Notes: a model not told the origin generated them from the sequence alone. Positions 792 to 14,463 are shown, counted from the stretch's first letter. The stretch: 14,610 nt of DNA from Candidatus Heimdallarchaeota archaeon (GCA_030614005.1 JAUWKS010000075.1:1-14610); one strand, 5' to 3'. A program made the numbers and translations.

Positions 792-1736
792 TTACTTTTT
801 CTTTCTCCTCTTACGGATATAAAGACTGATTGAACTAACTGTAAGCAATGCTGGAATTGTAATTAGAATTTCGATACCAGCAATTCTTGCATCCCAAAAT
901 AGTTTACCCATTCTATAGCCAACAGCTTCTACATGCTGATGCAGAAAGAGATCAATAATCTTTCCATCTTCTGTTGTTCCATTATAATCCAAACATATAT
1001 GATAGCCATTTAGTACCCCTGTTGTTAAATCATATTCGTATTTCAAATCATAAAAACCAGCAATACACCAACCTTGATCCTCACCATCAGTAGGTACATA
1101 AAAATCCCTCCAATAACTCCATTCGAAAATTCCTTTTGAATCCTCCTTATCAAAAGCTGTAATAAACGTAAAACTACGTGTTTTATATAGCGGATCCGGG
1201 TCCATTGTTCCTCCTACTTCAGCAAGATATTCAAACAGTGGATCAACCACACTTAAGTCGAAAAAGTGTGTGTTAATTATCTTTGGTGTACCTTTATCAA
1301 ATAAGGATTGATCCCAAGAATTATTTAGTTCTGCCATAAGAATAGGCAAAAATAATAAATCAAGAATCGTATAGTTGTTCGAAGTATCTTTAGTCGTAAC
1401 TGTATCTTCTCCGATTGTAATAGTATACTCTATCTCATGACTAACTTCACTTGTTATGTGAACAGCATATTTAGACCCTACAGGATGATTAGTTTCACCA
1501 ATGAAAATACCGGTAGAAGACGTGCTCAAATCTCCATGTTGAACACTCCATTCTGATGTCACTACATCGTATTCATAATCCAATTCGACAATACTAGTAA
1601 AATCTGCTAATGAATTCGTTATATTCAGGAATAATAATATAGAAACTAGTAATAATACTATAATTTTGATTCTCTTCTTCAAGAAATATTCCCCCAAGAA
1701 TTTTTTTCTTACAATAACAAATTCTTCTCTATTCAT
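792..1736 (-). CDS. Secreted, C-terminally membrane-anchored surface protein (resembles the Asgard 'choice-of-anchor S' type); true start probably TTG at 1682
   Basis: Signal peptide KKRIKIIVLLLVSILLFLNITNSLA|D, C-terminal TM plus basic tail IRKRRKKK, motif YEYDLTTGVLNG shared with 1880..2776. Family name is from recollection, not from a search. Confidence 0.7.
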   Translation of the reverse strand: MNREEFVIVRKKFLGEYFLKKRIKIIVLLLVSILLFLNITNSLADFTSIVELDYEYDVVTSEWSVQHGDLSTSSTGIFIGETNHPVGSKYAVHITSEVSHEIEYTITIGEDTVTTKDTSNNYTILDLLFLPILMAELNNSWDQSLFDKGTPKIINTHFFDLSVVDPLFEYLAEVGGTMDPDPLYKTRSFTFITAFDKEDSKGIFEWSYWRDFYVPTDGEDQGWCIAGFYDLKYEYDLTTGVLNGYHICLDYNGTTEDGKIIDLFLHQHVEAVGYRMGKLFWDARIAGIEILITIPALLTVSSISLYIRKRRKKK

Positions 1737-1834
1737 TAGTTTTTTGGGGGCAAAAATTAACTAAAATTGAACTAGAGAAGCTTTTTATTTAGTTTTAAAG
1801 ATAGATAACTCCAACCTTGGAGGGGTGACTTATT

Positions 1835-2776
1835 ATAAACAATAAAATTGGGAAAATTTTATCACTAGTTCTATTAGGAATGCTAATTCAAACACAATTA
1901 TGTTCAGCAGATACATTTGGTGTCTCTGTTGGAGAAACATTTACTTATGAGTGTATAACTTCAGAACGAACATTAGTTTGGGGATCAAATTCAAGTTTGT
2001 CAGAAGGATATTCACTTGATGACCATCATTTTGCTGAAGGAACGGCAGTGTCAGTTGAAGTTACACATATTGATGACAATGTCTATTATGTTGTTTCTAA
2101 AGATGGTTTTGAAGCTTTTCATAGTTCAGATGCTTTATCACTGTCATTAGCAATACTATTCGAGGAAGGGTCTATCATCTACTCGTTTTACAGTATTATA
2201 AACCATATTGAACAATTGGGATGGAACCAAACGCTATTGGATCAAGGACCTTATTTACTATGTAGAGAATTATTTGTAGAAATTGATTCCACTTCATGGA
2301 GTGACCTTATTGATGTAGTAACTTCAAAAATTGAGCATTACTCCACAGCAATAGTAACATATGACGATTCATTTCTTGGAGAAATTGAAGTACTATATGT
2401 TAATAGTGACTCAACCTTTGCATACGAGTTTCATTATTCAGGCGTATTAAATGTAACGTATACCCCTACCAGTCCTATAAGTCCATGGACAAAATATAGT
2501 GATGATGTAGAGTACTATCAAAGTTTTGTCTATGATAAGACCACAGGTGCATTGCTTGGTATGCATTCATACGGTTCAATGACTGGAACAAGCAACGGAA
2601 CAAACTTTGAATATGCTGTAGATAGTCATATCGAAAAGGAAGGATATGATTTACCAGTAAGTATACTGAGTAATACTAAAGGATTCTCCGGGTACAGCAT
2701 TGCTATTGCTTTTGGAAGTATGACTACATTAGTCATGATTGCTGTTTATGTTAGAAGGAAAAAAGCAACCATTTAA
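1835..2776 (+). CDS. Secreted, C-terminally anchored surface protein, paralog of 792..1736; start extended upstream of ATG 1880
   Basis: Frame is open from 1829 and encodes a full signal peptide (INNKIGKILSLVLLGMLIQTQLCSA|D). C-terminal GFSGY-TM-RRKK; motifs FVYDKTTGALLG and HIEKEGYDLP. Exact start uncertain. Confidence 0.7.
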   Translation: MNNKIGKILSLVLLGMLIQTQLCSADTFGVSVGETFTYECITSERTLVWGSNSSLSEGYSLDDHHFAEGTAVSVEVTHIDDNVYYVVSKDGFEAFHSSDALSLSLAILFEEGSIIYSFYSIINHIEQLGWNQTLLDQGPYLLCRELFVEIDSTSWSDLIDVVTSKIEHYSTAIVTYDDSFLGEIEVLYVNSDSTFAYEFHYSGVLNVTYTPTSPISPWTKYSDDVEYYQSFVYDKTTGALLGMHSYGSMTGTSNGTNFEYAVDSHIEKEGYDLPVSILSNTKGFSGYSIAIAFGSMTTLVMIAVYVRRKKATI

Positions 2777-2785
2777 ACCAATAGT

Positions 2786-2814
2786 TGATTAGATAGTTAG
2801 CTAACATCTAATCA
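2786..2814 (+). terminator. Hairpin followed by a T-tract downstream of the 1835..2776 gene
   Basis: tgattagat-a-gttagctaac-atctaatca: 9-bp arms around a 10-bp palindrome, then ttttt at 2821. Confidence 0.4.
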
Positions 2815-3063
2815 GTCATCTTTTTCTAATTTGAATTACAAACAATAGTTCAAAAGTTGTATAAAAGAGAAATAGAAACTCAATTTTGTGAACTCGCTTT
2901 TGTATTGTTATCTCCGAAGAACAAAACATCTCCTATGGTTGGTTTATTGCTGTGTTCGATGATGAATGATTATTTCATCTCAAAAACGCCGCTTTCTTGC
3001 TTTACTTTCTAAAGACTAATTCAAATTAATCAAGAACAATAAATTAGTTAGTAGAAGAGTTGA

Positions 3064-3426
3064 GTGATTAAGATGAAAATTTTAATAATTATTAATGATG
3101 CCTCATATGGAACCGAGAAAGCATTCAACGCTTTGCGGTTAGCCATGTCTGTGCAGAAAGAGCATAAAGATGTTGAAGTGAATGTTTTTCAGCTAGCGGA
3201 TGCCGTTACTTGTGCAATTCCCAATCAACAAACACCAAATGGGTACTATAATTTAGAGCGAATGTTGAAATCAGTTATTCGGAAAGGTAGAGAAATCAAG
3301 GCTTGTGGTGGATGTCTCAATGCCAGAGGATTAAAAGAAGTTGGGTTGATCGAAGGCATAGAGAGTAGTACTATGAGTCAATTATCACAATGGACGTATG
3401 ATGCTGCTAAAGTCATCACGTTCTGA
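3064..3426 (+). CDS. DsrE/YchN-like sulfur-relay family protein, copy A
   Basis: ASYGTEKAFNALRLA, FxLADAV, CGGCLNARG and QWTYDAAKVITF match the YchN/DsrE (COG1553) pattern. Confidence 0.9.
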   Translation: MIKMKILIIINDASYGTEKAFNALRLAMSVQKEHKDVEVNVFQLADAVTCAIPNQQTPNGYYNLERMLKSVIRKGREIKACGGCLNARGLKEVGLIEGIESSTMSQLSQWTYDAAKVITF

Positions 3427-3473
3427 TAGATAGTTTGTGAAACTAGATAAGAAAAGGAAAGCGAATGTAATAA

Positions 3474-3501
3474 TAGTGGACAATCCCGAATGTGAACCGT
3501 G
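3474..3501 (-). repeat. tRNA-3'-end repeat R1 (degenerate)
   Basis: Minus strand CACGG-TTCACAT-TCGGG-ATTGTCC-ACTA; aligns without gaps to R2-R7. Confidence 0.7.
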
Positions 3502-3562
3502 ATTAGTTAGAGAAGCACAAAATAAAATTCACTTAAAATTAGAGAAAGGAATATATACCAAA

Positions 3563-3594
3563 ACAGACATAGTATACACGAGAACCATGTCTGT
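3563..3594 (+). promoter_or_regulatory. Putative TA operator (8-bp inverted repeat) between TATA-like box and start codon
   Basis: acagacat (3563-3570), 16 nt, atgtctgt (3587-3594); atatata at 3551-3557. Confidence 0.45.
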
Positions 3595-3892
3595 ACTATC
3601 AGTGAGAATAGATAAAGAGCTGGAAGAGAAACTAAAGCTTCTAATGGAAAAACAGAAAATAATTGACAAGTCATCTTTTATTCGAAGATTACTCGATGAA
3701 TCAGTACAAGAAAAACTAATTGACATTTTGTGTAAAGAAGTTAAAAGAAAAAACATAAGTGCGTGGAAAGCCGCAGAACTCGCCCAGATGTCTTTAAGAG
3801 GGATTATGCATGAACTTGCTAAGCGAGATGTAAAAACATATGACGAAGTATCGTTAGAACAAGATTTAGCTTTTGTTGATAGAGAAGGATAA
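3587..3892 (+). CDS. UPF0175-family antitoxin with N-terminal ribbon-helix-helix
   Basis: LSVRIDKELEEKL...RRLL (RHH) followed by ISAWKAAELAQMSLRGIMHELAKRDV and LEQDL; coupled to a DUF3368 gene. Confidence 0.85.
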   Translation: MSVLSVRIDKELEEKLKLLMEKQKIIDKSSFIRRLLDESVQEKLIDILCKEVKRKNISAWKAAELAQMSLRGIMHELAKRDVKTYDEVSLEQDLAFVDREG

Positions 3893-3896
3893 AACA

Positions 3897-4409
3897 ATGA
3901 TAGGGATAACAAACGCTTCACCGTTAATCTATTTGGGAAAATTAGGCATAATAGAACTCCTCCCAAAATTATTCTCAAGAGTAATCACAACTACAACAGT
4001 AAAAGAAGAAGTTTTACAGGTAAAAGCTGCACCTGAATATCCTATACTTACAGAAGTTTTCGAGTCATGGTTAGAAGTAGTGAAAGTCGAAGAAGAGCTT
4101 GTGCAAAAAATAGCTGCTCTACAAATACATAGAGCAGAAGCTGAAGTAATAGCCTTAGGGAGAGAGCTGCTAGCAAAAGAAGAAGAAATAATAGTAATAA
4201 TAGATGATCTTCTAGCAAGAGAAATAGCTGTTAGTCTAGGATTGACTGTAACAGGAACAATTGGCATTATACTAGAAGCATTAAAAGAGAAAATTGTCTC
4301 AAAAAAAGCAGCGAAAATGTTAGTAGAACAATTAATAACAACGACAAATTTTAGATTGTCAGCAAAAGTTTATGCAAAAACATTGAAAGAAATAGAAACA
4401 AGAGGATAA
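3897..4409 (+). CDS. DUF3368 PIN-domain (VapC-like) toxin
   Basis: ITNASPLIYLGK, IHRAEAEVIALG, IIDDLLAR and TGTIGII are DUF3368 signatures. ATG 3897 lies 4 nt after the antitoxin stop. Confidence 0.85.
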   Translation: MIGITNASPLIYLGKLGIIELLPKLFSRVITTTTVKEEVLQVKAAPEYPILTEVFESWLEVVKVEEELVQKIAALQIHRAEAEVIALGRELLAKEEEIIVIIDDLLAREIAVSLGLTVTGTIGIILEALKEKIVSKKAAKMLVEQLITTTNFRLSAKVYAKTLKEIETRG

Positions 4410-4503
4410 AAATTATCAGTTAAGACTTTTAGAGATAAGATGGTTTGATTGAATTTCTTATTTTCATTTTGATTATAGTAATCATCAATTGATCAGTCCG
4501 AAA

Positions 4504-4704
4504 CTAAACCAGTTTTTCTGTGGGAATGGGATCATTAGATAACTTTCTTAATTTTTCTTGGAAAGCTTCAACCTCGGATTGAAAATCACTTAAGAATGTA
4601 GCTCTTAGTAAAACTAACCTCCCAGATTCTATTTAAAGAAATAATCTGGATCCTGGTTTGATGTTGAGTTTCTCACGTATTTCTTTAGGAATTAAAATTC
4701 CACC
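4504..4704 (-). pseudogene. AbrB/MazE-family antitoxin pseudogene (paralog of 8513..8743)
   Basis: GILIPKEIREKLNIKPGSRLFL*IESGRLVLLRATFLSDFQSEVEAFQEKLRKLSNDPIPTEKLV*. In-frame TAA at 4633-4635; 42-nt deletion removes the start codon. Confidence 0.9.
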
Positions 4705-4820
4705 GAGAGTACATAGTGGGAACGATGTTATGAATTTAATGTTTGGTTGACAAAGTGAAAATTTTAGAAGTAAAGCAAGAAAAAATGATTCAACGAATAA
4801 AATGAAAGAGTAAGAGAAAA

Positions 4821-4853
4821 TGATGGGCAATCCCAGATGTGAACCAGGGACTT
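4821..4853 (-). repeat. tRNA-3'-end repeat R2
   Basis: Minus strand AAGTC-CCTGG-TTCACAT-CTGGG-ATTGCCC-ATCA. Confidence 0.9.
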
Positions 4854-4907
4854 TTGAAAAAAGGATAAACTCTAAGAGGGAAAGATAGCCATCTGTATAA
4901 AACTCCC

Positions 4908-5201
4908 TTAAAGTGAATAGATTTCTTTATCTTCCTCTCGAGGGAATTGAGCATCCTTGTCATAATGAGTGTCCTTGTATTGCTCAAAATCAGCGATAAT
5001 TTCCTGAGCTAATTTCTCTGTTAGGCGAGGAACTGAAGAAGCAATAGTAAGAAAATCTTCAAAGTTACTAGTAGAGTATTGTATACAGAGGTCAATTGTC
5101 TCTTGTAAAGTAATTTTGCGACCTAACTGCAGGATCAATCTTGCATGAAGATCATCTAGAGCCTTCTTATCAGTGATCTTAATAACAGCCATAAGCATCA
5201 A
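4908..5201 (-). CDS. Orphan VapB-like antitoxin candidate (probable start ATG 5192)
   Basis: Small protein with helical N-terminus and acidic C-terminus in a TA array, followed by an SD and a 6-codon stub MAIFPS*. Function inferred from context. Confidence 0.55.
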   Translation of the reverse strand: MMLMAVIKITDKKALDDLHARLILQLGRKITLQETIDLCIQYSTSNFEDFLTIASSVPRLTEKLAQEIIADFEQYKDTHYDKDAQFPREEDKEIYSL

Positions 5202-5299
5202 TAATATACTATGCTACCTCGGCATAAAAGTCTACTGAAAAGTAAAGGACAAATGAAAATCGATGGAATAAAACTAATGAATGCGAGGAGAAGAAGAAG

Positions 5300-5329
5300 A
5301 ACGCTAGTGTCAAGATAGAGGTATTTCAG
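5300..5329 (-). pseudogene. Truncated VapC N-terminal stub
   Basis: (C)TG AAA TAC CTC TAT CTT GAC ACT AGC GTT = xKYLYLDTSV, overlapping the antitoxin stop TGA; the PIN-like sequence ends there. Confidence 0.65.
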
Positions 5330-5607
5330 CGCTTACGATCTTCTGCAACAAGTTTAACTATTGAAGAATCAAACAGTTTTTTCCCAACAGCTTCTAATTG
5401 TTTTTCGGTTAAACTTGGAGGAGTTCCCAATAGCTCAAGACTCGGAGAAGTTAATCGCTTTTCAGTGAAATCTTTAAGCTCCTTTGAAAGAAGAGCACGT
5501 ATAGTCTCACTTAGGTTGGCATAATACCCGAGGGCAATTAATTGAACTAATAGCTCTAAGTCTTCTTTTGCTATTCGAAAATTAACTACTTCATCAACCA
5601 TAAGCAA
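5326..5607 (-). CDS. Ribbon-helix-helix (CopG/VapB-like) antitoxin, toxin partner truncated
   Basis: VVNFRIAKEDLELLVQLIALGYYANLSETIRALL (RHH); C-terminal IVKLVAEDRKR resembles archaeal VapB tails. Confidence 0.75.
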   Translation of the reverse strand: MLMVDEVVNFRIAKEDLELLVQLIALGYYANLSETIRALLSKELKDFTEKRLTSPSLELLGTPPSLTEKQLEAVGKKLFDSSIVKLVAEDRKR

Positions 5608-5623
5608 AAAACATCCTATATGC

Positions 5624-5652
5624 AGATATAGATACAGATTTGTACTATATCT
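5624..5652 (-). promoter_or_regulatory. Putative operator palindrome upstream of the RHH gene
   Basis: agatatag-a-taca-gatt-tgta-ctatatct. Confidence 0.45.
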
Positions 5653-5684
5653 TTCCAGAAAGAAAAAAATGGTGAGGAAAGTAA

Positions 5685-5718
5685 TAGTGGTAAATCCAGG
5701 ATTCGAACCAGAGACTTC
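5685..5718 (-). repeat. tRNA-3'-end repeat R3
   Basis: Minus strand GAAGTC-TCTGG-TTCGAAT-CCTGG-ATTTACC-ACTA. Confidence 0.85.
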
Positions 5719-5811
5719 TAATAAAAGATAAGAAGAGTATTTAAAATTAAAAATTACTAATAGAATAGAAGGTTACAACAGGAAAAAAAAGTAGATTTAT
5801 CTGGTGAAGTA

Positions 5812-5892
5812 ATGTCAATAGGAAAAGTAGGCTCTAAAGGTGAATTCAAATTAAGAAAGAACAATAAATTGGTTAATAGAAGAGCTGGGTGA
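5812..5892 (+). pseudogene. 5' stub of AbrB-family antitoxin fused to the DsrE leader (26-codon ORF)
   Basis: MSIGKVGSKGEF matches MSIGKVGSKGEL of 13090..13323, and the leader agatttatctggtgaa is shared. The sequence then switches to the DsrE upstream region; TGA overlaps the DsrE GTG. Confidence 0.8.
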
Positions 5893-6251
5893 TTAAGATG
5901 AAAGTGTTAATAATTATTAATGATGCCTCATACGGAACCGAGAAAGCATTCAACGCTATGCGTTTAGCCATGACTTTACAAAAAGAACACAAAGATGTTG
6001 AAGCAAATGTTTTTCTGCTTGCTGATGCCGTTACTTGTGCAATTCCCAATCAGCAAACACCTGATGGGTACTATAATTTAGAGCGAATGTTAAAATCGGT
6101 TATTCGGAAAGGTGGAGAAATCAAGGCTTGTGGTGGATGTCTCAATGCCAGAGGATTAAAAGAAGTTGGGTTGATCGAAGGCATAGAGAGTAGTACTATG
6201 AGTCAATTAGCACAATGGACGTATGATGCTGCTAAAGTCATCACGTTCTGA
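5889..6251 (+). CDS. DsrE/YchN-like sulfur-relay family protein, copy B
   Basis: 111/120 aa identical to copy A by manual count. Confidence 0.9.
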   Translation: MIKMKVLIIINDASYGTEKAFNAMRLAMTLQKEHKDVEANVFLLADAVTCAIPNQQTPDGYYNLERMLKSVIRKGGEIKACGGCLNARGLKEVGLIEGIESSTMSQLAQWTYDAAKVITF

Positions 6252-6292
6252 TGAATAAATCCTACATGGTTATTATTAGGTTTAATTAATAA

Positions 6293-7039
6293 GTGACTAG
6301 TGTTTTACTAACAAGAGAAACATTGTTAAAAACTAGAATGCAAGAGCAATTTGTACGTAAACCATTACAAGTAAGAAAGGATGTTAAAAAACATCGGAAG
6401 GAAATGCTCATTCTATTTCTGGCAGCTTTTATCTATTCTATCGTCTATGGCATCTTTGAATATACTGTAATGTATACAAATCCGGGCTATGTTAGAAATG
6501 GCATCATTTCCCCTTACGTAAATTGGACAATTATGTACGTAAGTTTAGTTATACTAATGACAATTGTTACTCGAGGGAAAATCGAGTTAATAATTTTGGG
6601 AGTGTTTTTCTTCCTAGTGTTTGAAGATTTGGTGTATCACATATGCTATGGAATAGATATACAAGCCTATCCATTTCCAGTATATGATTGGTGGGATGAA
6701 TATCTGGCGAGCTTTCGCGTGCTGGGTCGGTTGGGGCAAGCGGTGCCATTTTGGCCATATGCACCACTCTATTATCTGCCAGGTTTCTTGATTCTACTAC
6801 TACAATTTAGTATAGGCATAATAAATGTTAAAGGATTCAGAATAGTAAACTGGATAATCGAACCATTCATAGTAGCAATCATTGTCGGGTTGCTTTGGAA
6901 TAATGACGTTTTTGCTTTAATTTCCTTAATAGTCATTCCAATAATCGCTTATAGCTATATCATTACCTTGATAGTGCTCTATAAAAAAGGACTGATAGAA
7001 ATATCAGAAAACTCTGCAGAAGAAATTAAAGAAGAATAG
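6293..7039 (+). CDS. Uncharacterised multi-pass membrane protein
   Basis: About 6-7 hydrophobic segments; start codon uncertain; stop lies 13 nt before R4. Confidence 0.7.
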   Translation: MTSVLLTRETLLKTRMQEQFVRKPLQVRKDVKKHRKEMLILFLAAFIYSIVYGIFEYTVMYTNPGYVRNGIISPYVNWTIMYVSLVILMTIVTRGKIELIILGVFFFLVFEDLVYHICYGIDIQAYPFPVYDWWDEYLASFRVLGRLGQAVPFWPYAPLYYLPGFLILLLQFSIGIINVKGFRIVNWIIEPFIVAIIVGLLWNNDVFALISLIVIPIIAYSYIITLIVLYKKGLIEISENSAEEIKEE

Positions 7040-7052
7040 AAGGGAGATAAAA

Positions 7053-7080
7053 TGGTGGGCGATCCCAGATTTGAACTGGG
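7053..7080 (-). repeat. tRNA-3'-end repeat R4
   Basis: Minus strand CCCAG-TTCAAAT-CTGGG-ATCGCCC-ACCA: perfect T-stem, canonical T-loop, CCA. Confidence 0.95.
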
Positions 7081-7100
7081 AATGCTTTTTTCAATATTGA

Positions 7101-7580
7101 TTAAATTGATAACAATTTACCAATACTTGTTTTGAAATTTTGAGAAGAGGGATTAAAAACAGGGATGGATTTGAGATTGGCTTTAAAATCAGAATCAAAA
7201 GTAATGAAAGCACTAGCTTTGTATTTTAGAGCAGTAGTGGCATGTAAGGCATCAGCAGCATATAGATTGGATGCAAAGATATGTTCTCGAGAAGTAATAA
7301 TAAGAGCATGAGAAACGGGAACAAGTAAAAGAATCTTCTTCTTAACCATCTCTCCAACATCACTCAGAAAAAAGTCAATAGCTATTTCAGCATTCTTTTT
7401 TGAGATAGTCCCTAAATTTACTTGTTTCTTGAAGGCTCGAAACATCTCAATAAGACACCATTCACTAGTAATAGCAGGAAAGTCAGGATGAACTTGAGAA
7501 AATAACCAATCAACTATCGAAGCATCTTCAATAGGACAATAAGCATGATAGAAGACATTGGTGTCAAGATAAAGAGCCAT
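7101..7580 (-). CDS. vapC: VapC PIN-domain toxin
   Basis: YLDTNVF, TSEWCLIE, YAADALH and FITFD: the conserved acidic PIN residues are present. Confidence 0.9.
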   Translation of the reverse strand: MALYLDTNVFYHAYCPIEDASIVDWLFSQVHPDFPAITSEWCLIEMFRAFKKQVNLGTISKKNAEIAIDFFLSDVGEMVKKKILLLVPVSHALIITSREHIFASNLYAADALHATTALKYKASAFITFDSDFKANLKSIPVFNPSSQNFKTSIGKLLSI

Positions 7581-7816
7581 TATTCCTCTTGCCTCACAGA
7601 ACGAATCGCTTCAACACCAGATTGAAAAGGTTTCTGTTGCTGTTTCCTAAGATACTCACGTAATTCAGCTCGAGAAGAAATACCAAGCTTTTCTTGAACA
7701 TAAGAGAAAATTCCACCACGAACTGCTTCACTACGAGACTTTATCACGCCACGTTCAATAAGCTGATCTAACCATTCAAGAAGTTCTTCGTCTAATGAAA
7801 CGGATATTGTAGTCAA
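7580..7816 (-). CDS. vapB: CopG/RHH-family antitoxin (VapB-like)
   Basis: ISVSLDEELLEWLDQL...SRSEAVR; C-terminal GVEAIRSVRQEE; stop overlaps the vapC start. Confidence 0.85.
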   Translation of the reverse strand: MTTISVSLDEELLEWLDQLIERGVIKSRSEAVRGGIFSYVQEKLGISSRAELREYLRKQQQKPFQSGVEAIRSVRQEE

Positions 7817-7841
7817 AATACCAACTCAACTAATCACTAAA

Positions 7842-7877
7842 ATAGTACTGTTTTTGTACTATAAAAACAATAGTACT
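7842..7877 (-). promoter_or_regulatory. Triple-box RHH operator overlapping the TATA box
   Basis: atagtac-tgttttt-gtactat-aaaaaca-atagtac: alternating 7-bp boxes at a 14-nt period; TTTTTATA on the minus strand at 7860-7867. Confidence 0.6.
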
Positions 7878-7903
7878 TGTAAGTGGAGAAAAATAGAGAG
7901 AAA

Positions 7904-7940
7904 TGGTGGGCGAGGCGAAATTTGAATCCGCGACTTCCAA
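7904..7940 (-). repeat. tRNA-3'-end repeat R5 (different T-stem)
   Basis: Minus strand TTGGAAGTC-GCGGA-TTCAAAT-TTCGC-CTCGCCC-ACCA. Confidence 0.9.
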
Positions 7941-8011
7941 TTAGATAAGAAAGTTTGATCAAGTTTCTTAGGAAAGATGATTACAACCAATTGCTGTATT
8001 GTATTCCTCAT

Positions 8012-8497
8012 TTAACGTTTTAATGAAGCGAATTTTGATTCATCAAATTCCTTTCCTTTGTTTAATATCAAAGGTGGATCAAACACAGGGTCAATTCGAA
8101 GTAAACTTGTGATTCTTAACAAATTTTTATCATTAGTGACAATCGTTTCAACATCTTTAGATAGCATACTCGCTAATATTAGGCAATCTCGTCCACCAAC
8201 TCCTTTACTTCGATTTGACTTTAAAAGCTCTAGCGCTATTAACATAATATCAGTATCGACAGGCACAAAGGTGATGTTTTCCTGGGTAACCCATTTTAAA
8301 ATTAACTTTTCTGTGGAGATTTTGTCTAATTTGGGAACCGCATAGAGATTATGGGAGACTTCAAGGGGGATTATCGTACTAAGCATAATTTGTTCATTTG
8401 CCAAGATTCCTTCGAACCATTTCTGAACACTGGTATTTGCTATGGCATTGGGATCAAAATAATAAATCCAGATTTGACTGTCAATTGCAATCATCAC
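8012..8497 (-). CDS. vapC: VapC PIN-domain toxin
   Basis: IAIDSQIWIY, STIIPLEV, GGRDCLILA, IVTNDKNL. Confidence 0.9.
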   Translation of the reverse strand: MMIAIDSQIWIYYFDPNAIANTSVQKWFEGILANEQIMLSTIIPLEVSHNLYAVPKLDKISTEKLILKWVTQENITFVPVDTDIMLIALELLKSNRSKGVGGRDCLILASMLSKDVETIVTNDKNLLRITSLLRIDPVFDPPLILNKGKEFDESKFASLKR

Positions 8498-8512
8498 GAG
8501 TTTCCTCCAAAC

Positions 8513-8743
8513 CTAAAACAATTTTTCTGTTGGAATGGGATCAGTAGTTAACTTTCTTAGTTTTTCTTGAAAAGATTCAAGCTCAGATTGAAGGTCGCTT
8601 AAGGATGTAGCTTGAAGTAAAACTAACCGCCCAGCTTCTACTTTAAGAAATAACTTGGAGCCTGGTTTGATGTTTAGTCTTTTACGAATTTCTTTAGGAA
8701 TTAAAATTCTACCTTTTGTATCAACAATTATATCGGAACCCAT
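8513..8743 (-). CDS. AbrB/MazE/SpoVT-family antitoxin
   Basis: VDTKGRILIPKEIRKRLNIKPGSKL swapped-hairpin motif, directly upstream of vapC. Confidence 0.9.
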   Translation of the reverse strand: MGSDIIVDTKGRILIPKEIRKRLNIKPGSKLFLKVEAGRLVLLQATSLSDLQSELESFQEKLRKLTTDPIPTEKLF

Positions 8744-8750
8744 AAGAAGT

Positions 8751-8770
8751 CCACCAAGTGTACTGGGTGG
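8751..8770 (-). promoter_or_regulatory. Putative AbrB operator palindrome
   Basis: CCACC-a-AGT-gt-ACT-g-GGTGG between a TATA-like box (about 8779-8786) and ATG 8743; decayed in the pseudo-copy at 4700-4719. Confidence 0.5.
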
Positions 8771-8879
8771 GAATGAGAATATAAATTTAACTGATAAGTT
8801 AGTGGATTGAGAATTTCAGAAATTAAATTAAAAAAAATCTTGAGATAATAGAAGAGTGGAAAGAGTAGAGAATGAAAAA

Positions 8880-8913
8880 TGGTGGGCGATCCCAGATTTG
8901 AACCGGGGATTTC
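8880..8913 (-). repeat. tRNA-3'-end repeat R6
   Basis: Minus strand GAAATC-CCCGG-TTCAAAT-CTGGG-ATCGCCC-ACCA. Confidence 0.95.
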
Positions 8914-8926
8914 TTTTTTGTAAGGT

Positions 8927-9541
8927 TCATTGATTTTTTTGCATTTTTTTCAGTAGAAATTCTTTTACTTCGTTTTGTTCATACTGAAAATGAGTTGTTA
9001 CTTCCCCTAGTATTTTCAACAATTTATTGAATTTTGATTCTATGACTTTTCTCTCTATTTCTGCATTTGTTATTTTCTTTTTATTTTTCACTTTCTTCCA
9101 ATATTTCAGCAGGGCTACTGTTGTGTATGCATTTTCATTTACTATTGTTATTTTTGACATTCCATATGTTATTACTCTGAATCTTGCATATGGCAGGTAT
9201 TGTATGCATACTGTTATCTTGTCTTTTGATTTGAAAATAATCCTTTCCTCTTGCAAGTTTACTTTGGCGCTTCTAATGAACTGTCTTCTTATCATATTGT
9301 GATATCCTTTCAGCAGTTCCCTAACTGTTTTTTTTGTTTTTGATACTGTGAAATAGATTGTAAAATCATAACCATCTATGAACATTGATGATTTCTTATC
9401 AGTAACTATTCTTATTTCCGCGCTGCTATTCCATTGCCTCATTATTTTTATTATTGTATGTACAGCTGGTTGATATATTGGCTTTTCTTGTACCAGCAGG
9501 TTTGCATATAGTCTTAATTCAGCTTCCTCGCTTATCAGCAT
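8927..9541 (-). CDS. Hypothetical basic protein downstream of the feo genes
   Basis: 204-aa Lys-rich ORF; no recognised family; stop lies 13 nt from R6. Confidence 0.6.
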   Translation of the reverse strand: MLISEEAELRLYANLLVQEKPIYQPAVHTIIKIMRQWNSSAEIRIVTDKKSSMFIDGYDFTIYFTVSKTKKTVRELLKGYHNMIRRQFIRSAKVNLQEERIIFKSKDKITVCIQYLPYARFRVITYGMSKITIVNENAYTTVALLKYWKKVKNKKKITNAEIERKVIESKFNKLLKILGEVTTHFQYEQNEVKEFLLKKMQKNQ

Positions 9542-9617
9542 ACTAGGTTACCGTTCCTTTTTTGTTTTTTTTTTTGTGTGTGTTGTTATTGTTGTTAGCT
9601 GATTTTTCCGCTTATTA

Positions 9618-9890
9618 TTACTCATCTTTTTTCTCTTTCTTTACCAGCAAATATTTTGGTCGATATTTTGATGAGTTACAGCTTTTCATTGAGCATCCAT
9701 TACAACTTCTAGAGCTACAATTCGCTTGTTTTATTTCTACTGCTGCTATTGTTTTTATGTATCCTTTTTGTTCAAGTTGTTTAATTATCATTTCGACTAC
9801 TTTTTCATCCATAGCTAATTTTCTGGCTATCATTGATGTTTTTAGCAGTCCACCATTTTCTAGATAGAACAGTACTTTTGACATAGACAT
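9618..9890 (-). CDS. feoC: FeoC-like winged-helix protein with C-terminal Cys cluster
   Basis: HTH segment IARKLAMDEKVVEMIIKQLEQKGYI followed by CSSRSCNGCSMKSC; lies in the feo operon. Confidence 0.75.
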   Translation of the reverse strand: MSMSKVLFYLENGGLLKTSMIARKLAMDEKVVEMIIKQLEQKGYIKTIAAVEIKQANCSSRSCNGCSMKSCNSSKYRPKYLLVKKEKKDE

Positions 9891-9916
9891 TTTTCTTCCT
9901 CCGAAAAAAAAGAGTA

Positions 9917-10423
9917 TTAGGAAGAAGCTGCTTGAGCTTTTTCCTTTCGCACATCTCGAAACTTGATGAATAATAGCAAGAATATTGGTAATGATATTAT
10001 TCCTAGTAGTATTGGGAAGTATAGTGATGAGAATTCTGTGAAGTCTGGTGCTACTGCTTCTGCTGCTGCATCCACTAGCACAGCGATTATATCTGCCACT
10101 ACCACTAATACATATAGTAAACCAAATACTACTCCTACTCCTGAACCGATTAGGAGAAATGAATTTCCTTCAGGATTTTTCCCTCTGAAATATAATATGG
10201 CTGACCATAGGATAATTAATCCGATTATCACCAGAGCAATTCCTGTCATGAATTCACCTGTCCAACCTAAGAGACTGGTGTTGGCAAATAGAGGCCATTC
10301 TGCTGTTGCTTCGAAAGTTGTCATAAATTGCAGGACTCCAAATGTCATAAAGATCAAAGATAGGACTATTGAGTAGGTTATTCGTAGCCATAATGGAATA
10401 TTTTTAGTTTCATTGATTGTCAT
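9917..10423 (-). CDS. Uncharacterised 4-TM membrane protein inside the feo operon
   Basis: Four hydrophobic segments; SD GAGGTGA; lies between feoB and feoC. Confidence 0.75.
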   Translation of the reverse strand: MTINETKNIPLWLRITYSIVLSLIFMTFGVLQFMTTFEATAEWPLFANTSLLGWTGEFMTGIALVIIGLIILWSAILYFRGKNPEGNSFLLIGSGVGVVFGLLYVLVVVADIIAVLVDAAAEAVAPDFTEFSSLYFPILLGIISLPIFLLLFIKFRDVRKEKAQAASS

Positions 10424-10436
10424 TCATCTCACCTCA

Positions 10437-12467
10437 TCAGATAGCAGCCGCTTGTAAACCGAAACCAACTATAGCTCCAGTTATGTAATAGGCTATTATT
10501 GCTGCAACATAAGCTATTACCAATGTCAGACCCATATTGAAGAACATCCACTTCCAGCTGTTTGTCTCTTGTTTTATTACTCCAAGTGCAGCAACACATG
10601 GGACATAGAGCAAGGTAAACATCATAAATGCCATTCCTGCAGCCGGTCCTATTGTCGCGGCTATTTGTGTTTGAAGTGCTGGATTATCTTCCGCTAAGTC
10701 ATCACCTATTCCAAATGTCGTTCCTAGTGCTCCTACCACTATTTCTTTTGCAATTAATCCGAAGAGCAATGCTGCCCCGAATTGCCAGACTAGTCTTGAT
10801 CCATCGGTCTTCATCCACCAGAAGAGGTAGCTAATAGCAGTTCCAACTTCTTCCATAATGCTGATACCTCCGAATTGAACGTTGCTAAATAGCCAGATCG
10901 CTGCTACAGATATCATGATGACTGAGGTGGCTTTTTTGAGGAACATTTTCCCTCTGTCCCAAGTTTTTCGGGACACGCCTTTTGCTGTTGGAGATGTATA
11001 TGGTTGAAGTTCCATAATAAATGGAGTTCCTTCTCCTCTAAAGAGAGTATTTCGTAATAGAAGTGCAACTAAGATTGCTACCACTATTCCTGTTAGATAG
11101 AGAACTAAAGTTATTGTACTTGGTGAACCTAAAGTAGAGGCAAATGCTCCACCTATGAGAATATACACTGGTAATCTTGCACCGCATGACATGAAGCCAT
11201 TGACCATAATGGTTGTCATTCGATCGTTTTCATTTTTGATTGCTCTTGTAGCCATTATTGCTGGTACATTACAACCAAAGCCAAGTAACATCGGAATAAA
11301 TGATTGACCATTAAGACCAATGCGATTCATCATTTTGTCCATGATAAAGGCAACTCGAGAGAGATATCCCGAATCTTCTAAAAACGCTATTGCTACGAAC
11401 AATAGCAGGATGTTTGGTAAGAAGACTATTACTGATCCAACACCATCAACTAGTGTACCTACAACGAAATTCATGAAGGCACCATCATGAATCAGGAAAA
11501 GCAAATCACCAAGATAACCAAAGAGCATTTCAACTAATCCTATGAAAGGATCGCCCACTGTAAATGTGAATTGAAATACACCCCACATAATTGCGATGAA
11601 TAGAGGAATCCCCCAAATCTTATGAGTGAATACTTCATCCAACATATCTGAAAGATTCCACTCATCAGATTCTGTTTTCGTCTGAACATTTCTGATATAG
11701 TTGCTTATTGCTGAATATCTTGCATTAGAAATAGCTACCATACCGTCGCCATCTAGTAAATCATCAGTTACTTCATCTATTTTCTTTGAAAAAGCACGCT
11801 TTGATATCCCTAAGGAATTTGCTATTGCCCATGTAGATTCATCATTCTCTAATAGAGAGATTGCCAACCAACTTGCAGGATATTTGGTTCCCACGTATGA
11901 TTTAATCTCAGCTTCAACCTTCGAGACTGCATCGCCAACTTTTCCATCATAAGTTAATGGACCGACTGCTAATCCTGCAGCCAATACATCGCAAATTGAT
12001 TCTTTTAAGATCTCAATTCCATCGTTTTTTGTAGCAATTGTTGGAATTACTGGAACACCCAAAACCTTGGACAATTGATCAGTATCAATCGTTACACCTT
12101 TGCTTTCAGCAAGATCAACCATGTTTACAACGACTAAAACCTTCATGCCCAATTCAAGCAATTGTGTTGTTAGATAGAGATTTCTTTCGAGATTTGAACC
12201 ATCTATAATATCAATAACCAAATCTGGTTTTTCTTTTAAGATGTAGTCCAGAGCAATTCGTTCATCAATAGAATACGGTGAAAGAGAATATACACCCGGA
12301 AGATCAATAACTTGTATCTCTTCCTGTTCTTCACCAGTCATCATTCCTTCTTTTTTCTCAACTGTACATCCCGGAAAATTAGCAACCGTCTGTCGTAAAC
12401 CTGTAAGAGCATTAAAAATAACACTCTTTCCGACGTTTGGATTACCAATTAATGCAATGCTTGTCAT
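10437..12467 (-). CDS. feoB: Ferrous iron transporter B
   Basis: G1 GNPNVGKS, NFPGCTVEKKEG, DLPGVYSL, NMVD, plus the TM region LGFGCNVPAIMATR, SCGARLP, LYVPCVA. Confidence 0.98.
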   Translation of the reverse strand: MTSIALIGNPNVGKSVIFNALTGLRQTVANFPGCTVEKKEGMMTGEEQEEIQVIDLPGVYSLSPYSIDERIALDYILKEKPDLVIDIIDGSNLERNLYLTTQLLELGMKVLVVVNMVDLAESKGVTIDTDQLSKVLGVPVIPTIATKNDGIEILKESICDVLAAGLAVGPLTYDGKVGDAVSKVEAEIKSYVGTKYPASWLAISLLENDESTWAIANSLGISKRAFSKKIDEVTDDLLDGDGMVAISNARYSAISNYIRNVQTKTESDEWNLSDMLDEVFTHKIWGIPLFIAIMWGVFQFTFTVGDPFIGLVEMLFGYLGDLLFLIHDGAFMNFVVGTLVDGVGSVIVFLPNILLLFVAIAFLEDSGYLSRVAFIMDKMMNRIGLNGQSFIPMLLGFGCNVPAIMATRAIKNENDRMTTIMVNGFMSCGARLPVYILIGGAFASTLGSPSTITLVLYLTGIVVAILVALLLRNTLFRGEGTPFIMELQPYTSPTAKGVSRKTWDRGKMFLKKATSVIMISVAAIWLFSNVQFGGISIMEEVGTAISYLFWWMKTDGSRLVWQFGAALLFGLIAKEIVVGALGTTFGIGDDLAEDNPALQTQIAATIGPAAGMAFMMFTLLYVPCVAALGVIKQETNSWKWMFFNMGLTLVIAYVAAIIAYYITGAIVGFGLQAAAI

Positions 12468-12709
12468 GGTTCAATTACCTCCACCAAGATTAAGCTTGCA
12501 CTTTTTTTACGGAATGAAAGTTGATACCCTTTAATCAAAAAGTCAATCGGATCACCCAAAGGAGCAACACGCACTACTTCAATTGTCTCGCCAGGTATTA
12601 CACCCATCTCGAGAATAGCTTTCTTTGCAGTGTTTTCTCCTTTGAATTTCTTGATTGTGGCTTTTTGACCAACTTTTAATTTATCCAGAGTTATTTCCAT
12701 AGTAATCAA
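12464..12709 (-). CDS. feoA: Ferrous iron transport protein A (start TTG 12709 or ATG 12700)
   Basis: LEMGVIPGETIEVVRVAPLGDPI...LSFRK; stop overlaps the feoB start (ATGA). Confidence 0.95.
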   Translation of the reverse strand: MITMEITLDKLKVGQKATIKKFKGENTAKKAILEMGVIPGETIEVVRVAPLGDPIDFLIKGYQLSFRKKSASLILVEVIEP

Positions 12710-12835
12710 CCTTTAAATCTGAAACAGCACGAAAAAGTAGTGCGTTATTATAACCCACTTATGAGTTTTAAATAACTGAATCTCCAGTTTTCTTCTGGAT
12801 ATTTGCTGTTTCACCAGATAGTTAATAGGTATAAA

Positions 12836-12883
12836 TGTTAGGAAAACCTAACAGTTATAATTTGTTAGGAGTTCCTAACAAAT
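12836..12883 (-). promoter_or_regulatory. Two DtxR/SirR-type iron-repressor boxes upstream of feoA
   Basis: tgTTAGG-aaaa-CCTAAca (12836-12853) and atttgTTAGG-agtt-CCTAAcaaat (12860-12883); the TTAGG-N4-CCTAA core matches DtxR/SirR operators. Confidence 0.7.
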
Positions 12884-12998
12884 ATAAAGATTCCTATAGA
12901 AAAGAATTTTGAGGGAAAGAGCAAAAATTGTATTCGTTTAATATAAAAAAGAAGGAATCTAAATATAAATAGAAAGACAAAAACAACTTAGAATGAAA

Positions 12999-13035
12999 TG
13001 GTGGGTGATCCCGGATGTGAACCAGGGACTTCCAA
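12999..13035 (-). repeat. tRNA-3'-end repeat R7
   Basis: Minus strand TTGGAAGTC-CCTGG-TTCACAT-CCGGG-ATCACCC-ACCA. Confidence 0.95.
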
Positions 13036-13089
13036 AGATTTTATGAAATGTTTTTATACCAGAAAAAAGAAGATTTATCTGGTGAAAAA

Positions 13090-13323
13090 ATGTCAATCGG
13101 CAAAGTAGGCTCAAAAGGGGAATTATTCCCACCAAAGAAAATTAGAGAAAAAATTGGGCTAAAGGAAGGACAAAGGGTTTTGTACAGAATAGTGCAAGGA
13201 AGATTAGTGGTAGAAAAAATTCCTTCAGCTGAAGAATTATTGGAAAAACCGGCAAAAGTCACAATTACCTTTGAAGAATTCAAAAAACATAGAAGGAAAT
13301 TAAGCAAGGATGCAGAGAAATGA
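13090..13323 (+). CDS. AbrB/MazE/SpoVT-family antitoxin
   Basis: IGKVGSKGELFPPKKIREKIGLKEG; SD GGTGA at 13081 supports ATG 13090; ATGA overlap with vapC. Confidence 0.9.
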   Translation: MSIGKVGSKGELFPPKKIREKIGLKEGQRVLYRIVQGRLVVEKIPSAEELLEKPAKVTITFEEFKKHRRKLSKDAEK

Positions 13324-13778
13324 AGCTGTTATTGGATAGCTCTTTCTTTATGCCTTTTTTAGCTGTAGATATTGTACAATGCCCAAGAAAGGCAATACTA
13401 GAATTAATGACAAAAGAAGAAATCATCAGATCAGAATTGGTAATTTTTGAAGTGTCTGCAAAAGGAAGCAAGTTAGTCAATAATGGGGAAATATCAATTG
13501 AAGAATTAACACAGGGAATAACAGCAATACAATACCTAGAAAAAATGGAAACTATTCCCATACATTATACAGAAATACAAGCATTAGCAAGCGAACTGCG
13601 AAAAAGTCACAGTAATCTTATTGATTGTTTAATGGTTGCAACAGCAGTTTATTACGCAGAGGGAATGCTAACACTAGATAAAGAACTAAAGAAAAAAGTG
13701 CATGAAGAGTGGAATGATATAATAGAGAGCATAAACAAAGAATTCAAGATGATTTTATGGGGAGAATATAAAAAATAA
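13320..13778 (+). CDS. vapC: VapC PIN-domain toxin
   Basis: LLLDSSFF, SELVIFEV, NLIDCLMVATA, LTLDKEL. Confidence 0.85.
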   Translation: MKLLLDSSFFMPFLAVDIVQCPRKAILELMTKEEIIRSELVIFEVSAKGSKLVNNGEISIEELTQGITAIQYLEKMETIPIHYTEIQALASELRKSHSNLIDCLMVATAVYYAEGMLTLDKELKKKVHEEWNDIIESINKEFKMILWGEYKK

Positions 13779-13797
13779 CAAAGATTTAGCTATTTCT

Positions 13798-14163: not shown

Positions 14164-14463
14164 CTCATTTACTAAATTGTTATAGCTAAACTTTTTTTAT
14201 AATTGATTAGAGAGATAGCTAAAAGTATTCATGTTTTACTAAAAACTATTATGATATTGTATCTGAAGATTATAACATTTTTATTGGTTTTACTATTTGA
14301 ACTTGTTTAGAACAAATAGTACTTGTTTTTGCCGAAATGGACTTCTAGACCTTAAAGAGGAAGTGATTTTTGTAAAGCAAAATATAACAGAAAAAGAACA
14401 TAAGAGAATAGATTTTAGTTTCAAAACAAACATACTTCATATCCCATATACCTCTATCATTTC

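Follow-up and report, generated by a model that had tools for sequence, protein, structure and literature searches.

The window analyzed here, a stretch of 14,610 nt, is the entire contig C55 of a Candidatus Heimdallarchaeota metagenome-assembled genome (MAG), which we call G000. It contains seven minus-strand copies of a tRNA 3' part, and these separate operon-sized cassettes that lack any integrase. The window is best explained as the distal part of an accretion array that was built at the 3' end of tRNA-Val(GAC). On balance, we slightly favor an origin by site-specific accretion, with minimal cassettes that are flanked by attachment (att) sites and are mobilized in trans. Small circular or other att-bearing DNA units would enter by site-specific recombination with the 3' part of the tRNA. 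Each unit would be one operon, mostly a type II toxin-antitoxin (TA) pair, besides one feo iron-uptake operon and one pair of a DsrE protein with a membrane protein. Each entry would leave a direct copy of the segment from the variable loop to CCA behind the cassette, and new entries would push older cassettes away from the tRNA. The cassettes would be minimal att-flanked units without a recombinase, comparable to cis-mobilizable elements (CIMEs), and a recombinase supplied in trans would gain, lose, and reorder them and exchange them between species.

Seven 3' parts of tRNA-Val(GAC)

We searched the whole 3.62-Mb genome with a profile of the repeat (nhmmer). All seven copies are co-oriented and span 3473-13040 of the window, with E-values from 1e-9 to 2.5e-6; the next genomic match was a true tRNA-Pro gene (E = 1e-3), and the rest of the G000 genome has no further copy of this type. 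An earlier, sequence-only reading of the window had named genome-wide scattering of the repeats as grounds for dropping its proposal, and no such scattering was seen. A degenerate 25-mer with up to three mismatches was found five times, versus 0.00 times expected (200 shuffles). The same reading had listed all seven repeats on the minus strand with starts within 1-4 nt of ours, and what it said of their spacing and of their anatomy, including a pyrimidine tract, matches what we see. From start to start, they are 1347, 864, 1368, 851, 976, and 4119 nt apart. Read on the minus strand, the repeat consists of the variable loop, a 5-bp T-stem, a TTCAAAT or TTCACAT loop, the other side of the T-stem, a 7-nt acceptor strand, A73, and CCA, and a C/T-rich tract of 25-30 nt follows directly after the CCA. 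Conservation peaks from the T-loop to the CCA, fades 5' of the variable loop, and ends at the CCA. Within the array, the copies are only 60-90% alike.

The most distal and most degenerate copy is R1 (3473-3516; nhmmer and sequence), which ends in CTA. R2 (4820-4862; nhmmer and sequence) has the TTCACAT loop and ends in TCA, and R3 (5684-5728; nhmmer and sequence) is degenerate and ends in CTA. R4 (7052-7096; nhmmer and junction comparison) is inherited together with the RHH-PIN cassette upstream of it, and R7 (12998-13040), which has the TTCACAT loop, is inherited together with the AbrB-PIN cassette. R5 (7903-7947) has a T-arm and acceptor strand (CTCGCCC) like those of tRNA-Val(GAC) in two relatives (allele B, below), and its T-stem, GCGGA/TTCGC, has compensatory changes relative to the other copies. 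R6 (8879-8918; nhmmer) is where metagenome contigs diverge from the window, at both edges.

ARAGORN and Rfam identified no tRNA gene or other RNA family in the window, and no open reading frame (ORF) runs through the repeats. We also considered whether an ORF might start in a repeat, as ATG is the complement of CCA plus T, but no frame that begins there reaches 50 amino acids, and the AbrB gene is in a different frame. It is hardly credible that the repeats are functional tRNA-like RNAs, that is, minihelices that are kept as 3' processing or termination signals of the cassette transcripts. Four of the seven cassettes are in the sense orientation relative to the repeats and end 5-65 nt before one, and the T-stems are mostly still able to pair, both of which would fit this role. 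However, the other three cassettes are antisense; three of the seven repeats have C at T-loop position A58, which is universally conserved in tRNAs; and two have lost the CCA. A recent origin from a tRNA suffices to explain the conservation.

Judging from full genes in relatives, the source of the repeats is tRNA-Val(GAC). The acceptor had already been taken to point to tRNA-Val, correctly, and the full genes make this specific. We found them in three MAGs of the same genus (G006, G004, and G001) and at three metagenome loci (L063, L070, and L071), and all six agree with the repeat in the variable loop, the T-arm, the acceptor strand ATCGCCC, and ACCA. In these genes (allele A), the 5' acceptor strand is GGGCGGT, which pairs with the repeat's ATCGCCC. 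Two other relatives, G008 and G005, have allele B, with GGGCGGG at the 5' side, CTCGCCC at the 3' side, and other T-stems; this is the allele that R5 resembles. In G008, G006, and G005, the array begins with an intact tRNA-Val(GAC), and the repeats are 3' parts of the tRNA that are co-oriented with the intact gene, as in tandem accretion at a tRNA.

The search for the source tRNA, which the sequence-only reading had proposed, thus succeeded in relatives of the same genus but not in the assembly of G000 itself (126 contigs, G+C content of 33.5%, and estimated completeness of about 90%). Both tRNA-Val(GAC) and its usual neighbor, tRNA-Ala(GGC), are missing from that assembly; the tRNA genes that it does contain have many introns and encode CCA. 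No contig that continues the array was found in it either. Several G000 contigs begin at tRNA genes, which suggests that the assembly breaks at such repeats. The repeats would explain both the breakage of MAGs at tRNA genes and the lack of some tRNAs.

As a side observation, one variant form of the tRNA-Val fragment carries about 30 inserted nt in its T-loop, which could form a short hairpin. It is kept in three genomes (L011, which is on contig C26 of G010, 10244-10312; L052, on C88 of G007, 6062-6126; and L067, 8793-8861) and may derive from a tRNA allele with an intron in the T-loop.

Cassettes vary between genomes, with breakpoints in the repeats

Each interval between repeats holds whole genes, as the sequence-only reading had stated, but the distance from the gene end to the near repeat ranges over 5-65 nt and is not always 13-20 nt. 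Cassette 1 (3517-4819) encodes, according to Pfam, a UPF0175 antitoxin (3587-3892, plus strand) and a DUF3368/PIN toxin (3873-4409, plus strand), followed by the remnant of a MazE-like pseudogene (4475-4704). Cassette 2 (4863-5683, minus strand) has two small ORFs (4908-5201 and 5326-5607) that match no Pfam family and are TA-like by size and pairing only. Cassette 3 (5729-7051, plus strand; Pfam) has a remnant of an AbrB gene (5785-5846), the second of two DsrE copies (5889-6251), and a membrane protein of 248 amino acids (6293-7039). Cassettes 4 and 5, both on the minus strand, are TA pairs by Pfam: cassette 4 (7097-7902) has an RHH antitoxin (7580-7816), a PIN toxin (7101-7580), and an 87-nt leader with a palindrome, and cassette 5 (7948-8878) has a MazE/AbrB antitoxin (8513-8743) and a PIN toxin (8012-8497). 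Cassette 6 (8919-12997, minus strand; Pfam) is the feo operon, with FeoA (12464-12709), FeoB (10437-12467), a membrane protein (9917-10423), a FeoC-like winged helix-turn-helix protein (9618-9890), and a protein of 204 amino acids (8927-9541); its G+C content reaches about 0.40-0.42. Cassette 7 (13041-13797, plus strand; Pfam) encodes an AbrB/MazE antitoxin (13048-13323) and a PIN toxin (13320-13778); the repeat upstream of this AbrB-PIN pair is present in G010, G004, and L067 and is missing in the window. In cassettes that are co-oriented with the repeats, the first gene starts 87-289 nt past the preceding repeat, after a non-coding leader. Across the window, Pfam identified no genes for recombinases, replication, or virions in the array, and we found no inverted repeats that bound the cassettes.

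A comparison of related genomes for gain, loss, or reordering of cassettes, with breakpoints in the repeat, had been suggested as a check, and it gave a positive result in G008, G006, G010, and L067. In G008, the order is intact tRNA-Val(GAC), the RHH-PIN cassette, a fragment that is like R4, about 750 nt, and tRNA-Ala(GGC). The last fragment, the spacer of about 750 nt, and tRNA-Ala(GGC) are 86% identical between G006 and G008, with the homology beginning inside the fragment. Between tRNA-Val and this last fragment, G006 has a PIN-UPF0175 pair, whereas G008 has the unrelated RHH-PIN pair. The RHH-PIN cassette (cassette 4) is 94% identical in G010, 90% identical in G008 (over 7049-7938 of the window), and 75% identical in L067, a metagenome contig of 74.7 kb. 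In both G010 and L067, RHH-PIN is followed directly by AbrB-PIN; in the window, AbrB-PIN is three cassettes upstream of RHH-PIN, with feo and MazE-PIN in between. MazE-PIN (cassette 5) is 93.5% identical on C26 of G010, and homologues of cassette 1 adjoin tRNA-Val(GAC) in G006, G001, G004, and L063. The arrays range in size from one cassette (G006 and G008) to at least seven (the window). Overall, units of about 0.85 kb have identical ends in three or four genomes, with differing neighbors and order.

The shared cassettes are also more similar than the core DNA that we sampled. The cassettes that G000 shares are 94% identical in G010, 90% in G008, 84% in G004, and 91% in G006. Over one 20-kb region of core DNA, identity between G000 and G010 is 84-88%; in this sample, a 3.6-kb ABC-transporter gene is about 75% identical to its counterparts in G008, G005, G006, and G004, and a further 6.4 kb mostly had no match in those four genomes. 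Because cassette identity exceeds that of this single core region, the cassettes seem to have been exchanged between species.

The MAGs of the close relatives are also deposited under Candidatus Heimdallarchaeota, and the runs that contain the window's sequence are cold-seep and marine-sediment metagenomes. Public runs were compared as Logan assembled contigs only. A scan of metagenome contigs gave 17 matches: 12 were bacterial tRNA-Val(CAC) genes, which we set aside, and the other 5 are from relatives among the Heimdall archaea and were used. A contig from another family (G044:C85) that carries a fragment of the genus type was not used, as it looks like genus-1 DNA and may be misbinned. In four runs, R1-R3 and R5-R6 are spanned by Logan contigs, and a 13.3-kb contig in ENA, filed separately but perhaps from the same sample as the window, has the window's gene order. 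Inside R3 and at the edges of R6, metagenome contigs part from the window; in one run (X6), the loose ends are at 8880 and 8913. A joint that leads backwards, from 7899 to 7051, was considered as evidence of a circle and rejected: most simply, it comes from a strain with allele A upstream of RHH-PIN, as in G010. Two further joints from X6 (951 to 7082 and 12734 to 5697) carry unrelated letters and were set aside.

The first DsrE copy (3064-3426, plus strand) lies in the distal flank of the array, and C26 of G010 has the same flank. The two copies (compared over 3008-3307 and 5833-6132) are 90% identical and lie at a distance of 2825 nt. In one contig from a cold-seep metagenome, 3289 is joined to 6115 across them, with 2825 nt deleted and 95 nt shared at the joint, so a variant exists that has one DsrE copy and lacks R1-R3 and their cassettes. 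Another side observation concerns the feo operon: upstream of feoA, within 12830-12886, is a near-perfect palindrome of 24 nt, which may be an operator for the FeoC-like protein or for another regulator.

Exchange point and search for a recombinase

The non-tRNA arm that lies 5' of each fragment and the cassette upstream of it are conserved as one block. Past the CCA, sequences from different contexts diverge immediately. The fragments vary in allele and in length, and they travel with cassettes. Three comparisons would place the exchange point at the boundary between the variable loop and the T-stem, as for a fixed crossover. First, the AbrB-PIN arm ends in GGAAGTC, and the T-arm attached to it is of allele A in G000 and G010 and of allele B in G004. 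Second, homology between the MazE-PIN units of G000 and G010 stops 27 nt past the stop codon of the PIN gene, with only the 13 nt beside the switch shared (about 11 of 13); attached to them is an allele-B T-arm in G000 and a CCCAG-type stem in G010. Third, the homology between G008 and G006 begins at the T-stem.

These comparisons also bear on whether a site-specific enzyme is needed. After a few founding integrations, host homologous recombination might have swapped, inserted, and deleted cassettes on incoming DNA, with the 25-45-nt fragments and the C/T-rich tracts as portable anchors. Such exchange would account for the absence of integrases, for T-arm alleles whose mosaic pattern agrees with neither of the simple crossover models, for the G010 array that is detached from its tRNA gene (below), and for the deletion between the two DsrE copies, with its 95 nt of shared sequence. 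We nevertheless consider it quite unlikely as the whole explanation: in all three comparisons the switch is at the boundary of the variable loop and T-stem, which fits a fixed crossover better, and the anchors are short and differ considerably within the array.

G000 has a single tyrosine recombinase (PF00589), on contig C58, where it is cut by the contig end; the window's contig has no match to PF00589. The C58 protein is 89% identical to an orthologue of 351 amino acids that is present once per genome in the genus, among genes of two-component systems, and its best match is archaeal XerA, below the cutoff of that family. The gene is at 19780-20675 of C58 (L026, 934-1827) in G000 and on C8 of G010 (L047, 8853-9908), and the proteins, of about 351-360 amino acids, have a Cys/His-rich insert (CxH...CxxC) in the N-terminal half. 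To our knowledge, typical XerA proteins do not have such an insert.

The sequence-only reading had described the cassettes as free of integrases, and this held up: the window has none according to Pfam, and tblastn found no remnants. More broadly, no integrase or remnant was found in the window, in the arrays on C8 and C110 of G000 (below), or in the arrays of relatives that we examined, and tblastn with the relatives' other tyrosine recombinases found no remnant of these in any array. A tyrosine recombinase near the end of the array, which was to be looked for, is not there. One relative has an integrase gene 2.4 kb upstream of tRNA-Gln, which is uninformative. Nor did the att sequence match any of the viral contigs; an unbinned plasmid or virus might still supply a helper.

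Several observations weigh against site-specific accretion. No suitable recombinase was found: the one XerA-like gene of a 90%-complete MAG sits in a chromosomal context, and G000 has no SSV-type integrase (PF16795), serine recombinase, or Pfam Cas1 (PF01867) anywhere in its genome. The other tyrosine recombinases of 11 relatives are not beside tRNA fragments in the flanks that we inspected. Intact tRNA-Val(GAC) is absent from the contig as well as from the G000 assembly, and the proximal end of the G010 array abuts a gene for a RadA paralogue, with no tRNA; arrays without an adjoining tRNA may have become detached from their anchor. Neither a circular cassette nor an empty site was demonstrated among the assembled Logan contigs. 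In addition, the T-arm alleles do not sort cleanly with either neighboring cassette: the one upstream of RHH-PIN is B in G000 and G008 and A in G010 and L067. This imperfect sorting suggests that gene conversion or homologous recombination is also at work. Finally, R1, R3, and parts of the array on C26 of G010 are decaying, as expected of inert scars.

It is unlikely, in our view, that the repeats are nothing else than such scars, the last remnants of integrase-bearing plasmids or viruses that integrated serially at tRNA-Val. TA modules would have persisted in them by resisting deletion, no small cassettes would move today, and whatever species share would have been inherited or transferred as entire blocks of an array. 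In archaea and bacteria, arrays are known to be built by repeated use of a single tRNA site (PMC6563490), Sulfolobus genomes have many dead remnants at tRNA genes (PMC3718332), and in Prochlorococcus islands, tycheposons push older elements inward and leave partial tRNAs (bioRxiv 10.1101/2020.12.28.424599). Both tandem integration at re-used tRNA sites and decayed remnants have ample precedent. The degenerate repeats, the pseudogene remnants inside cassettes (4475-4704 and 5785-5846), and the failure to find a helper recombinase are also consistent with this explanation. However, units of about 0.85 kb that keep identical ends among other neighbors and in other orders, cassette identity that clearly exceeds the value for the sampled core DNA, and the clean replacement at one site between G008 and G006 all argue against it, and no array that we examined contains backbone or integrase remnants of larger elements. 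For the accretion of att-flanked cassettes, we infer a site-specific mechanism, a circular intermediate, and present-day activity.

Known systems and other arrays in the genus

The sequence-only reading had proposed a possible archaeal analogue of integrons. Chromosomal super-integrons are rich in TA cassettes, and like integrons, the arrays have short co-oriented sites, single-operon cassettes, abundant TA pairs, and content and order that vary between close relatives. As a statement of membership, though, the proposal fails. There is no intI-like gene, attI, or promoter Pc next to the array, and the sole PF00589 match in G000 is the XerA-like protein on C58. The sites are not like attC, whose imperfect inverted repeats (R''-L''...L'-R') form single-stranded hairpins: here the only inverted repeat is the 5-bp T-stem, and the sites are tRNA 3' halves. 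Integron cassettes are mostly promoterless, co-oriented, and read from Pc, whereas these lie both ways (three of the seven are antisense) and have leaders of 87-289 nt. Also unlike an integron, a genome has several arrays, each at a different tRNA. The arrays share only the array logic with integrons.

That reading had also held that tRNA-anchored islands are usually large and carry their own integrase. This is broadly true, but integrase-less, att-flanked remnants have already been described, so the gap to known systems is smaller than it implied. In particular, streptococcal CIMEs are att-flanked, lack an integrase, and are moved by a helper integrative and conjugative element (ICE) or integrative and mobilizable element (IME) (PMC5704250). 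As in CIMEs, the att sites come from the 3' end of the target gene and are kept, with attL and attR retained and the genes for integration and transfer lost, and att-cargo-att-cargo tandems form as newcomers integrate next to resident elements (PMC5704250). CIMEs, however, are described as decay products that neighbor a working ICE or IME and are moved by its integrase (PMC5704250). The array described here has at least seven units of 0.8-4 kb, ends that are fixed across species, and an Asgard host, and no helper with a matching integrase turned up in the 90%-complete MAG.

Other comparisons gave partial likenesses. Tandem accretion at a tRNA usually involves an integrase in each element, which these cassettes do not have. 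Tycheposon islands are likewise proximal to tRNAs, with partial tRNA copies between modules and adaptive or defense cargo, but tycheposons carry their own tyrosine or serine recombinase and a replication module, and the arrays have no such genes. Archaeal remnants at tRNA genes (in Sulfolobus islandicus, PMC3718332, and in Thaumarchaeota, PMC6563490) also have a duplicated tRNA 3' att, and integrase-free remnants persist. Unlike the array, those remnants and the SSV-type "suicidal" integrases (PMC7253208) involve single or few insertions per tRNA, with recognizable plasmid or virus genes or a split int gene; G000 has no PF16795 match, no int fragments, and no ORF through the repeats, so an SSV-type partitioning integrase, where attP lies within the int ORF and the two int halves end up on either side of the insert, does not fit. 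Casposons and other transposons with terminal inverted repeats and target site duplications do not fit either: the cassettes have no inverted repeats at their ends, G000 has no PF01867 match, and the fragments are variable. Finally, integrative mobile elements exploiting Xer (IMEX) lack an integrase and accumulate in tandem at one site via the host's Xer, and the only recombinase in G000 is XerA-like; but IMEX target dif instead of tRNA genes, and nothing links XerA to the fragments.

What sets the arrays apart from these known systems is the combination of very small single-operon units, many units per site, several sites per genome, no integrase, ends that are fixed across species, and an Asgard host. 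We found no description of similar arrays in a limited sample of the literature on Asgard mobile elements. Among known prokaryotes, Asgard archaea are the closest relatives of eukaryotes, and the movement of their flexible genes is poorly understood. Small att-flanked units at tRNA sites hold, in one Heimdall genus, a large part of the TA and defense repertoire along with an iron-uptake operon. If a trans-acting recombinase exists, this would be cassette capture that is functionally parallel to integrons, on tRNA-derived sites; otherwise, it would be a clear case of serial integration and decay turning archaeal tRNA loci into islands of TA and defense genes.

Similar arrays are present at other tRNAs of G000. 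On contig C8, tRNA-Pro(TGG) is followed by five co-oriented fragments that are 0.3-2.1 kb apart, and the cargo includes an AAA_21/RloB pair; co-oriented tRNA-Pro arrays are also present in G005, G006, and G010. On C110, four fragments come after tRNA-Ala(TGC). The stretches of 110 nt that follow this gene and its first fragment are homologous to each other, the signature that would be expected of two related elements in tandem. Single or few tRNA-like fragments are on C63 (Leu-like) and C77 (Asn-like; no tRNA gene was called on this contig), with further ones on C7 and C82.

The genus also has a second family of repeats, which are not derived from a tRNA, have no Rfam match, and are about 55-75 nt long. 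The window has a truncated copy (14332-14363, plus strand) that lacks the canonical left half, with the junction at 14331/14332; metagenome contigs have the full form. This family is found at 13 further places in G000 (C102 at 1379, 2222, 3114, 4745, 8010, and 8791; C71 at 50586 and 51389; C95 at 29009 and 33691; C66 at 5891 and 10934; and C112 at 14909) and at many more in the genus, at 92-97% identity. On C102, it punctuates intervals of 0.8-3 kb with small paired ORFs, like another type of att. It is possible, though we doubt it, that Heimdall-group archaea have a distributed, integron-like system, in which several tRNA 3' parts and at least one non-tRNA repeat family serve as platforms for a recombinase that is host-encoded or unrecognized. 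Integrase-less single-operon cassettes for TA, defense, and metal uptake would then be inserted, excised, and traded between species, an outcome that we hold equally tentatively. The XerA-like enzyme with the Cys/His-rich insert is one candidate for the recombinase.

A few minor observations concern these other loci. The first interval on C110 (L013; G000 C110, 34715-51068) is a 16-kb island with an MmeI-type restriction-modification enzyme, a NERD-like protein, a LAGLIDADG-HTH protein, a superfamily 2 helicase, a metallophosphoesterase, and two large unassigned proteins (498 and 680 amino acids). On C8, a DegV gene beside the last tRNA-Pro fragment (L015, 6552-7575; G000 C8, 34751-35774) is 96% identical to G005, compared with only 75% for the ABC-transporter gene next to it; no tRNA-Pro fragment was seen downstream, on the far side of this DegV gene. 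Lastly, C7 has a perfect 30-nt copy of the 3' end of tRNA-Arg(TCG) (25150-25179, plus strand) that is 6 kb from the gene (19117-19194, minus strand) and inverted relative to it, which could mark an inversion between att copies.

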